Source: Patescibacteria group bacterium
GTDB taxonomy: Bacteria > Patescibacteriota > Minisyncoccia > UBA6257 > Colwellbacteraceae
Reading direction: 5' to 3'
Assembly: GCA_018826645.1 (NCBI GenBank)
Contig: JAHJZF010000050.1
Location: 1 to 36,295, forward strand
Length of the DNA: 36,295 nucleotides
Within the stretch, counting starts at the first letter, position 1; each line of letters begins with the position of its first letter. The notes beneath the pieces were generated by a model. That model ran no database searches. It had not been told where the DNA came from and saw only the letters and a list, made by a program, of their open reading frames with translations. Positions 3,579 through 17,520 of this stretch are shown here, in pieces. The translations under genes were made by a program, and so were the position numbers.

Positions 3579-4435
3579 TGTATTTAGACGAAAAAGAACA
3601 AAAATTTTTACAGGAGACTGCTAATAAAATTAGGAGGAAGATTATTGATATTCTTGAAGATGCTGGAAGTGGTCATTCTGCTGGTTCTCTTGGAATGGCA
3701 GACGTCTTTACCGCGCTCTATTTCCATATTCTTAAACACGATCCTAAGAACCCAAGCTGGGAAGAGAGAGATCGATTGGTGCTTTCGAATGGTCATATAG
3801 CGCCTGTTCAATATGTTACGATGGCCTACGCTGGATATTTACCAGTAAAGGAACTGAAGACATTAAGAAAGCTTCATTCTCGTCTACAGGGGCATCCTCA
3901 TCGAGAGGCGTTGCCTGGCATAGAGACTACTTCTGGTCCTCTTGGCGCCGGTCTTTCGCAGGCGGCCGGCATGGCACTGGCTGCGAGATTAGATGGTAGA
4001 AAGCATAGAATCTATTGTTTAATGTCTGATGGAGAACAGCAAGAGGGGTTAATTTGGGAGGCATCCATGTTTATTGGCAATAATAAGCTCTCGAACATTA
4101 CGGCCATTATGGATAGAAATAACATCCAAATAGATGGTTCTACGGAAAACGTGATGCCCCTCGAGCCCCTTAAAGAAAAGTATGAGGCTTTTGGATGGCA
4201 TGTTTTAGATATAGACGGTCACGATATAGAGCAGATAGTAGACGCGACCAACGAAGCGAAAGCAATTACATATCAGCCGACCCTCATAGTCGCCCATACA
4301 ATCCCGGGGAAGGGCGTGAGTTTTATGGAAGGGGATTTTGGGTGGCACGGTAAAGCGCCAACAAGATCGCAAGAACAAAAAGCGTTGGCAGAACTTCGGA
4401 CTATGAAGGGTAAGATTAAATCAGAACACGAATAA
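3578..4435 (+). CDS. tkt: transketolase, N-terminal (TPP/PP-binding) subunit of a split enzyme
   Basis: GSGHSAGSLG, LSNGH and the GDG-type box CLMSDGEQQEG. 285 aa, followed directly by the C-terminal subunit. Confidence 0.9.
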   Translation: MYLDEKEQKFLQETANKIRRKIIDILEDAGSGHSAGSLGMADVFTALYFHILKHDPKNPSWEERDRLVLSNGHIAPVQYVTMAYAGYLPVKELKTLRKLHSRLQGHPHREALPGIETTSGPLGAGLSQAAGMALAARLDGRKHRIYCLMSDGEQQEGLIWEASMFIGNNKLSNITAIMDRNNIQIDGSTENVMPLEPLKEKYEAFGWHVLDIDGHDIEQIVDATNEAKAITYQPTLIVAHTIPGKGVSFMEGDFGWHGKAPTRSQEQKALAELRTMKGKIKSEHE

Positions 4436-10225: not shown

Positions 10226-10579
10226 TTACTTAGATACCTTTTTAAGGGCCTTCTTTCCGCCGGAGGCGGATCCGCCTTTGGCGGAAGGTTTTCTGACGGG
10301 TTTGGCTTCTTCAACTTCAGCTGTTTTAGGCTTCTTTTTAGGGGAAGGCTTGCTCTTGGCAGAAGCTTTTGTGAGCTCTGCTTTAGCTCTGCGCGCCTTG
10401 AATTTCTCAACCCTACCAGCGGTATCGATAAGCTTCTCTTGACCTGTAAAGAAAGGGTGACAGGCGCTACATATCTCTACTTTCATTTCTTCATGAGTTG
10501 AGCCAATTTCATGTACTTTTCCGCATGAACAAACGATTTTCGCAGTTGTATAGTATTGTGGGTGTATATTCTTTTTCAT
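10226..10579 (-). CDS. rpmE: 50S ribosomal protein L31 with about 50-aa Lys/Ala/Pro-rich C-terminal extension
   Basis: [10 protein letters not shown]...CSCG...[10 protein letters not shown] is the canonical zinc-type L31. 117 aa versus the usual length of about 70. Confidence 0.9.
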
Positions 10580-10836
10580 CCCGTTAGAGACAGGGAGCGC
10601 TTTAACCTATTTCTAAGATAGCGTTTTCCCATGCCTGATTTTAGATATTTTTCTCTTGACCTTGAATCTTGTTCGTTTGTACAAGCCTCGTAATAGATTA
10701 GCTCAAAGGGTCCTCGATCCTTTGTGGAAGCCACCTTTCCAGACACATGTTCTTTAAAGCGCTTCCGTAAATCTACCGTAGAGCCAGTATACCAGTTCCC
10801 GTCCTTTTTGCTAAGAAGTACATATGTGTAATACAT
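10576..10836 (-). CDS. small GIY-YIG nuclease family protein (UPF0213-like)
   Basis: YYTYVLLS...[16 protein letters not shown]...E...KYLK matches the GIY-(10-11)-YxG, R, E core of GIY-YIG domains. 86 aa. The TGA stop overlaps the rpmE ATG (ATGA). Confidence 0.85.
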
Positions 10837-10854
10837 AGTGGTCTCTAACGGGAT
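10578..10854 (-). repeat. inverted-repeat-bounded element carrying the GIY-YIG ORF (arms 10578-10591 and 10841-10854)
   Basis: ATCCCGTTAGAGAC at 10578-10591 and its exact reverse complement GTCTCTAACGGGAT at 10841-10854. Confidence 0.7.
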
Positions 10855-15303: not shown

Positions 15304-15340
15304 AACAAGAAAAGCCCCCATTACGGGGGCTTTTCTTGTT
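15304..15340 (+). terminator. rho-independent terminator after the surface-protein gene
   Basis: Perfect 16-bp stem AACAAGAAAAGCCCCC / GGGGGCTTTTCTTGTT with 5-nt loop. The 3' arm is T-rich. Confidence 0.8.
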
Positions 15341-15366
15341 GGAGTTAACCCACAAAGAGTCCTTGA

Positions 15367-15437
15367 CCCCGTTAGAGACCGCCCTCAACTTATGTTGACG
15401 GCTACGATCGTCTAGGGGTGCCCTGTCTCTAACGGGG
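15367..15437 (+). repeat. ORF-less hairpin doublet of the CCCGTTAGAGAC repeat family
   Basis: CCCCGTTAGAGAC (15367-15379), 45-nt spacer, GTCTCTAACGGGG (15425-15437). It shares the 13-mer CCCGTTAGAGACC and the 16-mer CCCTGTCTCTAACGGG with the GIY-YIG element read on the minus strand. Confidence 0.8.
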
Positions 15438-15465
15438 TTGACGGCAGATATTCGACTCATATAAT
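15438..15465 (+). promoter_or_regulatory. near-consensus sigma70 promoter of the 16S rRNA gene
   Basis: TTGACG (15438-15443), 16-nt spacer, TATAAT (15460-15465), about 240 nt upstream of the mature 16S 5' end. Confidence 0.6.
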
Positions 15466-15701
15466 ATCAAGACGGTCGGTTAAGTTAGAAATGATATATG
15501 GATTCATAGACAACTGACATACGAGAACTTTAAGAAATAGAGGTTCCGCCTCTACAGATGCTTGGTCACCACGACAACATATACAGGCGTTTGTAGAGGC
15601 GGAATTTACTTATATATAGGTAGAGTGCTTTTTAGTTGTCCCGAGCTTACATTTCGGTAAGTAAAGGTCTATTCCCTCTGGAGAGTTTCTTCAGAGCGAT
15701 T

Positions 15702-17290
15702 AATTAGGAGGATTTGATCCTGGTCCAGGATGAACGCTGGCGGCGTGGATAAGGCATGCAAGTTGAGCGCTGTATTTTCAATTGACCAAACCTTCGGGCG
15801 AGGTCGCCGAAAATACGGAGCGGCAAACGAGTTAGTAACACCTTGGTATCTACCCCATACTCAGGAATAAGCCATCGAAAGATGGTCTAATACCTGATAG
15901 TCCCCGCTTTCGCTTTTCGTTTCACGAAAAGCTACAGCGGGCAAGCCGCAAGGCCTGCCCACCGTAGCTCCTAGTGGAGCGCAGAGCGAAGGTGGGGTAA
16001 AACTTTTGTGGTATGGGAGGAGCCTAGGCCCGATCAGCTAGATGGTGTGGTAATGGCGCACCATGGCTATGACCGGTAGGGGAGGTGAGAGCCTGACCCC
16101 CAACGACGGAACTGAGACACGGTCCGTACACCTACGGGTGGCCGCAGTCGAGAATATTCCACAATGGGCGAAAGCCTGATGGAGCGACGCCGCGTGCAGG
16201 AAGACGGCCTTCGGGTTGTAAACTGCTTTTCTAGGGGAAAAATATTGATGGTACCTTAGGAATAAGGAGTGGCTAAATTCGTGCCAGCAGCAGCGGTAAT
16301 ACGAATACTCCAAGCGTTATCCGAATTTATTGGGCGTAAAGCGTACGTAGGGGGCTTGATGCGTCTACTGTTAAATCTCACCGCCCAACGGTGAGGCCGC
16401 AGTAGATACGGTCAGGCTAGAGAATGCGAGAGGTCTGTGGAACGCACGGTGTAGGGGTGGTATCCGTTGATATCGTGCGGAACACCAAAGGCGAAGGCAG
16501 CAGACTGGCGTATTTCTGACCCTGAGGTACGAAAGCGTGGGTAGCGAACGGGATTAGATACCCCGGTAGTCCACGCCGTAAACTATGTTGACTAGCTGTT
16601 TCGAGTATCGACCCTCGGAGTGGCGCAGCTAACGCGTTAAGTCAACCGCCTGGGAAGTACGACCGCAAGGTTAAAACTCAAAGGAATAGACGGGGGCTCG
16701 CACAAGCGGAGGAACATGAGGTTTAATTCGATACTAAGCGAGGAACCTTACCTAGGCTTGACACCTAGACGAACGCCAGCCGAAAGGCAGGCTTCTGGAT
16801 TTATTCAGCGGCTAGGCAGGTGCTGCATGGTTGCCGTCAGCTCGTGTCTTGAGATGTACCATTAAGTTGGGAAACGAGCGCAACCCTCATCATCAGTTAC
16901 AAGTGTCTGATGAAACTGCCCTGATTCACAGGGAGGAAGGAGAGGATGACGTCAAATCAGCATGGCCCTTTGATGCCTAGGGCTACACTCATGTTACAAT
17001 GGCCGATACAAAGGGTTGCAAAGGAGTGATCCCAAGCTAATCCCATAAAGTCGGCCCCAGTTCGGATTGGAGGCTGCAACTCGCCTCCATGAAGTCGGAT
17101 TCGCTAGTAATCGCGCATCAGCTATGGCGCGGTGAATACGTTCCCGAGCCTTGTACTCACCGCCCGTCACGTCAAGGGAGCCGGGGACACCTGAAGCTTT
17201 AATTAATTTGAAGTTAGGGTGAATTCGGTGACATGGACGAAGTCGTAACAAGGCACGCGTAGCGGAAGCTGTGCGTGGAACAATTAAACT
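15702..17290 (+). rRNA. rrs: 16S ribosomal RNA, about 1.59 kb, with an expanded V2 region and no anti-SD tail
   Basis: 5' end ggaggatttgatcctggtccaggatgaacgctggcggcg. Internal universal blocks: gtgccagcagcagcggtaatac, ggattagataccccggtagtcc, aaactcaaaggaatagacggg, gcatggttgccgtcagctcgtg, ccgcccgtcac. 3' end gaagtcgtaacaaggcacgcgtagcggaagctgtgcgtggaacaattaaact. Confidence 0.95.
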
Positions 17291-17334
17291 TTGAGAATAG
17301 GTCCCCGACCTTAATCGGGGAGATATTGATCGAG

Positions 17335-17397
17335 CCCCGTTACATACGGGGCAAGCTCCGAAACTATTCGTGGAAAATCTGCGGGTATGTAACGGGG
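17335..17397 (+). repeat. variant hairpin doublet (CCCCGTTACATAC / GTATGTAACGGGG) in the 16S trailer
   Basis: Perfect 13-nt arms at 17335-17347 and 17385-17397 with a 37-nt spacer. It has the same CCCCGTTA..AC core as the 10.6-kb and 15.4-kb copies, with three compensated substitutions. Confidence 0.75.
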
Positions 17398-17520
17398 CGA
17401 GGAGTCTTTAAGTCTCGATTATCTGATTTCAACATCAGATTACTAATGACCTATTACCGAGGAGGCCCGCCACTGGCGGGTAAAGCTTGGGGCAACTAAA
17501 AAGTAAAATTACCTATATAA

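Follow-up and report, generated by a model that had tools for sequence, protein, structure and literature searches.

The 63-nt hairpin at positions 17335–17397, downstream of the 16S rRNA gene, is very probably a non-autonomous, MITE-like copy of a small mobile DNA element, which inserted into the 16S trailer after this lineage had split from its closest sampled relative and duplicated the tetranucleotide CGAG in doing so. On this reading, the hairpins around the 16S gene are insertions rather than parts of rRNA biogenesis in these ultra-small bacteria, and a false lead is removed. At its present site the 17335–17397 copy is most likely a neutral passenger, transcribed with the pre-16S trailer and trimmed away. 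The window referred to below is the whole stretch of 36,295 nt that was analysed, and its relevant features are as follows.

10579–10853, minus strand: ORF-bearing copy with ends TCCCGTTAGAGAC / GTCTCTAACGGGA, enclosing an 86-codon GIY-YIG gene (ORF 10576–10836)
15367–15437, no strand assigned: second ORF-less copy, 71 nt, with an interior of the 'hairpin doublet' type and TTGA/TTGA flanks (15363–15366 and 15438–15441)
15438–15465, plus strand: promoter-like site TTGACG-16-TATAAT (11/12 matches), starting where the upstream copy ends and conserved in G002, a genome of the same genus
15628–15648, plus strand: 5' strand of the predicted pre-16S processing stem, 21 nt, 90% complementary to 17483–17503; conserved in G002
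15702–17290, plus strand: stand-alone 16S rRNA gene (RF00177, 1406 bits)
17331–17334, no strand assigned: left CGAG of the target-site duplication; a single CGAG stands here in G002
17335–17397, no strand assigned: ORF-less, non-autonomous hairpin element, 63 nt, consisting of two arms and a 37-nt interior; the site is empty in G002
17398–17401, no strand assigned: right CGAG of the target-site duplication; a single CGAG stands here in G002
17483–17503, plus strand: 3' strand of the predicted pre-16S processing stem, with the element located between it and the mature 3' end of the 16S rRNA

Insertion into the 16S trailer

Comparison with the same-genus genome G002 reveals an empty site. The G002 sequence aligns to window positions 16903–17334 at 93% identity and picks up again at 17398, with the two matches overlapping by 4 nt, and the trailer outside the hairpin is approximately 95% identical between the two genomes. 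Where G002 reads ...ttgatCGAGgagtc..., this genome reads ...ttgatCGAG(63 nt)CGAGgagtc...; aligned at the insertion, ...gatgttgatCGAGgagtcttc... in G002 corresponds to ...gatattgatCGAG(63 nt)CGAGgagtcttt... here. Because a single CGAG in G002 is matched by CGAG on both sides of the 63 nt in this genome, the hairpin has been inserted precisely, duplicating a 4-bp target. The sole ORF across the element (17275–17499, 74 aa) begins within the 16S gene and continues through the rRNA trailer, and it is therefore taken as non-coding.

The second ORF-less copy, with arms CCCCGTTAGAGAC (15367–15379) and GTCTCTAACGGGG (15425–15437), is placed between the terminator of the preceding gene (15304–15340) and the predicted 16S promoter. 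The −35 hexamer of this promoter (TTGACG, from 15438) starts one base past the end of the copy, which therefore lies outside the predicted 16S transcript. The downstream copy, on the other hand, sits in the trailer and inside the helix formed by 15628–15648 and 17483–17503, thus in a different transcriptional context. Since this helix is conserved in G002, it is taken to be the real precursor-processing stem. The hairpin itself does not keep its position among close relatives as a processing helix would, being missing from G002, where the predicted stem is conserved.

The reading made from the sequence alone had stressed that the 16S gene is flanked on both sides by family members. This is true of the positions, but the upstream copy is outside the predicted transcript and the downstream copy inside the processing stem. 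In G002 no family copy was found upstream of the 16S promoter; the sequence there has diverged too far for an empty site to be defined, and on this side of the 16S gene the similarity of the two genomes starts exactly at the promoter. A G002 copy at C1:3561 was considered as an orthologue of the upstream copy and rejected because it lies on a different contig from the G002 16S gene. With the downstream site empty and no upstream copy in G002, the flanking is thus a lineage-specific outcome of two insertions, and the link to the 16S gene or rRNA drawn earlier loses its support. The 23S gene was not found in this assembly. The 16S 3' tail (17277–17290) reads GGAACAATTAAAC, lacking the CCUCC core of the anti-Shine-Dalgarno sequence, and the tail of G002 is the same.

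It is also conceivable, if unlikely, that the family has been domesticated in the manner of the Neisseria NTS/Ssn system, with copies around important loci such as the rRNA gene acting as sites of ssDNA cleavage and thereby restricting or shaping how incoming DNA recombines, which would be compatible with a mobile origin. The 16S bracket, however, is not conserved even within the genus, and no particular genes are consistently accompanied by copies in this genome. In favour of domestication are the bracketing of the 16S gene by two copies, the occurrence of small GIY-YIG genes in 300 of 401 genomes of the order, and the finding that SsnA cuts NTS-bearing ssDNA and lowers transformation of an NTS-bracketed gene (PMC11893778).

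The repeat family and its 13-bp stem

Members of the family share the pattern CCCCGTTA followed by five variable, paired base pairs and closed by TAACGGGG, and seven complete copies were identified in this genome (0.59 Mb, 68 contigs, 91% complete). The search pattern CCCCGTTA-N(20–130)-TAACGGGG was found in 127 of 401 sampled genomes of the order, whereas the reversed-pattern control was found in seven of 401, once in each; among 401 genomes sampled across the phylum it was present in 46, with up to 49 copies per genome. Copies range from minimal hairpins of 27 nt to approximately 140 nt and are often nested within one another. They show an intergenic bias; their locations include spacers that are not transcribed, tRNA genes, and sites next to, and perhaps inside, protein-coding sequence.

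Flanking tetranucleotides are identical at all four positions in 43 of 87 distinct copies and at three of four in another 20, compared with one of 87 for shifted and seven of 87 for permuted controls. The duplicated targets are chiefly TTTA/TAAA, TCAA/TTGA, and TTCA/TGAA, together with CGAG/CTCG, TGAG, and CGTG. A perfect repeat is missing in about half of the copies, and a minority, including all tRNA-carrying copies, have flanks of the TTCA...CAAG type, which a simple 4-bp staggered cut does not explain. The possibility that the variable 5-mer specifies the 4-nt flank in a guide-like manner (cf. IS608) was rejected, the mapping between flank and inner stem being inconsistent across loci. In one 69-nt subfamily (metagenome loci L182, L189, and L198), some copies carry mixed flanks with TTCA on one side and CACG/CGTG on the other, a pattern that rearrangement of the intervening DNA, by recombination of copies at separate sites, would produce.

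In the 17335–17397 copy, the left arm CCCCGTTACATAC (17335–17347) and the right arm GTATGTAACGGGG (17385–17397) are perfect complements separated by 37 nt, as the sequence-only reading had stated, and a G17334/C17398 pair lengthens the stem to 14 bp. Its observation that three bases had changed in both arms is likewise borne out, with positions 9–11 reading GAG in the 15.4-kb copy and CAT here and complementarity being kept. The covariation analysis of all copies that it had proposed was performed on 131 copies with 127 distinct arm pairs from several dozen genomes, in which the outer 8 bp are invariant by design of the search, and it identified arm-to-arm covariation limited to the 13-bp stem. 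At positions 9–13 the left arm shows 44 different 5-mers, and standard pairs are formed in 120, 124, 124, 114, and 117 of the 127 copies (90–98%). Positions 9–10 are GA in more than 80% of copies; positions 11–13 use all four Watson–Crick types, and G·U pairs occupy only seven of 635 cells at positions 9–13. Pairing drops to a background of 34–50% at positions 14–18, and slid-partner controls are 35–49% paired. The covariation score is 0.298, as against 0.108 ± 0.008 for shuffled arms (reached in none of 500 shuffles) and 0.07–0.10 for slid partners. The distribution of perfect stem lengths has a sharp mode at 13 bp (73 of 131 copies), which is also the stem length of the 17335–17397 copy.

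Since the arms co-vary across 127 copies, the family maintains complementarity along a 13-bp stem. That wobble pairs are so rare, and that pairing stops at exactly 13 bp, speaks for a stem of defined length formed in DNA and not for an RNA helix. The compensatory changes had been read earlier as direct evidence for a selected hairpin, in DNA or RNA; the covariation holds, but it does not by itself prove selection on the hairpin, and the RNA side of that claim is not supported by so few G·U pairs. The arms would be complementary owing to the family's need for a 13-bp stem rather than to ribosome making, although the pattern does not prove this either, because one arm templating the other by copying or repair would look alike.

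Folding of the 17335–17397 copy gives different results for RNA and for ssDNA, both far below shuffled controls. The RNA minimum-energy fold (−35 kcal/mol, z = −5.5) leaves the long stem unused and includes the local hairpin CCCCGT-tacat-ACGGGG at 17335–17351, whose presence had been noted in the sequence-only reading, whereas the ssDNA minimum-energy fold is the 14-bp long-range stem (−17.7 kcal/mol, z = −4.55). The suggestion that two mutually exclusive folds constitute a designed switch finds no support: ACGGGG occurs in none of 126 other sampled left arms, so such folds are confined to this copy, and its alternative fold is probably incidental. For 15 copies of the 'doublet' type, RNAalifold recovered the outer stem and fragments only; a hand-drawn 'doublet' structure with a second helix and two hairpins, paired at 91%, 55%, and 76%, is moderately supported.

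These results make it very improbable that the hairpin functions as an RNA structure within the 16S precursor, for example by signalling processing or anti-termination, with compensatory changes that would reflect selection on RNA folding. Such a role might be expected from its location in transcribed sequence past the 3' end of the 16S gene but within the processing stem, from its stable RNA fold, and from a 100-nt family copy with an 18-bp stem that lies directly upstream of the 23S rRNA gene 5' end in another genome of the order (L045; G180:C11:11741–11840). Yet the long stem is unused in the RNA minimum-energy fold and G·U pairs are nearly absent, the same type of element is also present in untranscribed spacers, beside or possibly within coding sequence, and in tRNA genes, and the hairpin is missing from the otherwise nearly identical trailer of G002, the sequence of which implies that 16S maturation would proceed normally in a relative without it.

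As a DNA element, the 17335–17397 copy is a minority form of the family. C stands at stem position 9 in 18 of 131 copies, and the exact CATAC inner stem had no match in the metagenome collection. Because neither this inner stem nor the interior has a close match, the copy is not a recent derivative of the resident ORF-bearing copy. A search relaxed to CAT retrieved 45 metagenome loci, mostly a 46-nt human-gut palindrome with an AAACG/CGTTT extension. This palindrome, AAACG-CCCCGTTACAT...ATGTAACGGGG-CGTTT, is conserved in approximately 30 human-gut metagenome contigs (L157–L200) and has an 11-nt core in common with the family; it extends outward as an inverted repeat, lacks direct-repeat flanks, and is probably an unrelated hairpin or a distant cousin. 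This genome (G000) also contains a tandem array of element-derived 67-nt units on contigs C45 (5196–5385) and C35 (2059–2168); the array continues past the end of each contig, in opposite orientation on the two. Internal units lack CGTTA in the left arm, and the two contigs probably join through a collapsed array.

The nuclease-bearing form and its proposed movement

The ORF-bearing copy is located 6.5 kb upstream of the 17335–17397 hairpin, and its ends match those of the short copies, with an outermost T·A pair instead of C·G. A 14-nt inverted repeat (10578–10591 and 10841–10854) brackets the GIY-YIG ORF, the 86-aa product of which is a single-domain protein matching PF01541 (GIY-YIG) over residues 1–68 (E = 1.5e-16). 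Its nearest PDB sequences are the UPF0213 proteins BH0048 and EF2693 (1zg2, E = 3.7e-11), and NCBIfam gave only a sub-threshold match to a group I intron endonuclease family. When read on the minus strand, the upstream ORF-less copy has 16 nt on the left and 13 nt on the right in common with the ends of the nuclease-bearing copy, beyond the palindrome; the 15.4-kb copy is probably an internal-deletion derivative of the ORF-bearing copy.

The association between nuclease and ends extends well beyond this genome. Within the order, nine of the 12 closest nuclease homologues (71–79% identity) are flanked by CCCGTTAGAG...CTCTAACGGG, 273–276 nt apart. In other phyla, scanned with one genome per species, the same ends are present at 69 of 80 homologue loci (67–79% identity), typically next to TGAA, TTTA, or similar 4-nt repeats. 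Over the loci in the order and in other phyla together, the spacing of the ends is 272–285 nt. The hosts of the homologues include Omnitrophota, Nitrospirota, Thermodesulfobacteriota, Planctomycetota, Elusimicrobiota, Clostridia, many lineages of Patescibacteria, and one Woesearchaeota bin. The copy in this archaeal bin (L143, PCVE01000136.1) encodes a 70%-identical nuclease and has the same CCCGTTAGAGAC ends and TGAA flanks, and represents either a cross-domain transfer or a binning error.

Six small GIY-YIG paralogues were identified in this genome. At least two besides the window copy, located at C57:13085–13366 and C16:12903–13194, have inverted ends of a different kind, namely ATCCCGATAGTGAT and the 21-nt repeat ATCCCCACACCTAATCAGTTT, so that a single genome of 0.6 Mb contains several nuclease/hairpin pairs. 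At 10576–10579 in the window, the flanking tetranucleotide contains the stop codon of the GIY-YIG ORF, which overlaps the ATG of a downstream 117-codon ORF (10226–10579) as ATGA. The sequence ...ATGAA likewise adjoins many homologous elements elsewhere, so that a host start codon is provided or kept intact by the end of the element.

We propose that the 86-aa GIY-YIG nuclease encoded by the full-length form (10579–10853) would mobilise the short element in trans. The arms may fold into the 13-bp stem once the DNA is single-stranded or extruded, and the nuclease might then read the outer 8 bp (CCCCGTTA/TAACGGGG) by sequence and measure the stem. The inner 5 bp would need only to pair, which would explain their free but compensated variation. 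Cleavage would occur a few nucleotides outside the foot of the stem, and host repair and ligation could finish the move and leave the 4-bp repeat; for the nuclease chemistry this scheme follows the analogy with Ssn. Against the proposal, a GIY-YIG nuclease alone is not known to move DNA, and no strand-joining activity is encoded. The 13-bp limit, with eight fixed and five co-varying pairs, provides a testable model of nuclease recognition that could be useful for programmable ssDNA cutters.

The nuclease/SRM hairpin system of the Ssn proteins is the closest published parallel. Ssn nucleases are single-domain GIY-YIG proteins of approximately 94 aa (CDD cd10448) that bind hairpin repeats as ssDNA only and cut a few nucleotides upstream, and their genes are bracketed by NTS/SRM hairpin repeats in a layout that the authors note to be insertion-sequence-like (Chenal et al., 2025, Nat Commun, PMC11893778). 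The family described here similarly has a single-domain GIY-YIG protein of about 90 aa (86 aa in this copy), a gene flanked by hairpin-forming repeats, many ORF-less copies, and several nuclease/repeat pairs per genome. This likeness to cd10448 is one of layout, and the nearest solved structures of the 86-aa nuclease are UPF0213 proteins. Each Ssn repeat is a self-contained hairpin of approximately 30 nt, whereas the ends here pair across the whole element, in a 13-bp stem that encloses 4–140 nt or a gene; the repeat sequence is unrelated to NTS, and cargo such as tRNA genes is carried. The 4-bp duplication and empty site, which show transposition here, are not reported in that study (PMC11893778), where the idea is raised as an analogy only; they provide direct evidence at the genome level for transposition of the hairpin repeats that accompany small GIY-YIG nucleases. 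The feature belongs with these hairpin repeats, here with clear transposon hallmarks.

Like bacterial MITEs, the 17335–17397 element and its relatives are short, ORF-less, and multi-copy, share terminal inverted repeats, duplicate their target, show an intergenic bias and, in this case, an empty site, and have a larger coding relative with the same ends. They differ from MITEs in that the putative mobilising protein is an 86-aa nuclease and not a DDE transposase, in that the interiors of the copies are largely unrelated to each other, and in that the inner 5 bp vary freely but with compensation, which the terminal repeats of ordinary MITEs do not. Examples of bacterial MITEs are Correia/NEMIS in Neisseria, RPE in Rickettsia, and Nezha in cyanobacteria.

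Similarities are also evident to the REP/BIME repeats of RAYT (Y1 HUH) enzymes and to IS200/IS605 elements, in which hairpin DNA is recognised as a single strand, a small enzyme gene is flanked by its own repeats, and repeats have expanded genome-wide. The conserved hairpin foot with a variable interior, the length of 28–140 nt, the intergenic bias, and the nested copies would be compatible with a REP/BIME-type repeat served by a Y1 (RAYT) transposase, or with a site resembling integron attC, and we nonetheless consider both highly improbable. The enzyme belongs to another superfamily, and no Y1 transposase was found in this 91%-complete genome with PF01797, which was positive in control genomes. 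The foot is CCCCGTTA and carries no 5' GTAG motif, which is not conserved here, and 4-bp target duplications are present, whereas REP and IS200/IS605 elements make none. Judged by textbook attC anatomy, the integron reading was rejected: the GTT/AAC triplets are opposite in orientation to the attC R box, the stem is perfect and lacks extrahelical bases, and the elements stand alone instead of forming cassette arrays.

The possibility of a chance palindrome with an 8-mer coincidentally in common with other copies, a concern raised by the shortness of the core, can be practically dismissed: CCCCGTTA occurs four times in the window as against 0.9 expected (four was reached in none of 100 shuffles), the 13-bp stem is the family mode, CAT-type copies are multi-copy with their own flank repeats in other metagenomes, and the empty site with its precise 4-bp duplication refutes coincidence, so that the 17335–17397 copy is a true family member and the doubt voiced in the sequence-only reading is settled.

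tRNA genes as cargo and as targets

On contig C43 of this genome (3733–3925, outside the window), a family copy at 3779–3887 with arms CCCCGTTATTCAC / GTGAATAACGGGG encloses an intact tRNA-Met(CAU) gene and itself sits in the anticodon loop of a second, native tRNA-Met gene. In G002 this second gene is uninterrupted, with both halves 100% identical and in the same neighbourhood beside tRNA-Asp. The enclosed tRNA is 88% identical to the interrupted gene, and no orthologue of it was found in the relatives searched. Compared with the empty site, the junction has changed from a loop CA to TTCA-element-CAAG, which is not a simple duplication. The insert was considered as a tRNA intron, and this was rejected: archaeal bulge-helix-bulge splicing and every contiguous excision tried with ARAGORN failed to restore the CUCAUAA loop, for which the uninterrupted G002 orthologue was the reference.

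Six of the eight tRNA-carrying copies examined (the C43 copy together with L007, L017, L026, L027, and L028) lie inside a tRNA gene and in the same orientation. The tRNA types involved are Met, Ala, Val (three copies), and Ile, the insertion in the Ile case being in the D-loop; matching tRNA identity was read from the body or the loop and is weakest for L017. The flanks of these tRNA-in-tRNA copies are TTCA...CAAG-like and not a direct repeat. Such copies illustrate how a minimal element can survive insertion into an essential gene when the genome has hardly any redundancy.

Among known GIY-YIG enzymes, the tRNA-carrying copies alone recall SegB of phage T4, which targets a conserved motif in tRNA genes, cleaves with a 2-nt stagger, and drives inheritance of the tRNA genes nearby (PMC2330249). 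The likeness to SegB is the association of a GIY-YIG enzyme with tRNA genes. SegB is a multi-domain phage protein without hairpin ends, whereas here a chromosomal tRNA gene receives an entire substitute tRNA of the matching type, carried in by an ORF-less hairpin.

A broader reading, to which we give slightly less than even credence, is that the hairpin-ended elements may form a class of transposons moving by means of a GIY-YIG single-strand nuclease of about 86 aa and host repair only. The 13-bp stem, 8 bp recognised by sequence and 5 bp by shape, would be their whole cis-requirement, and the loop could carry any cargo, including tRNA genes that replace the one destroyed. If this were true, small nucleases of the Ssn/UPF0213 type, annotated as hypothetical in thousands of genomes across phyla, would be the enzymes of a widespread and undescribed class of mobile DNA.
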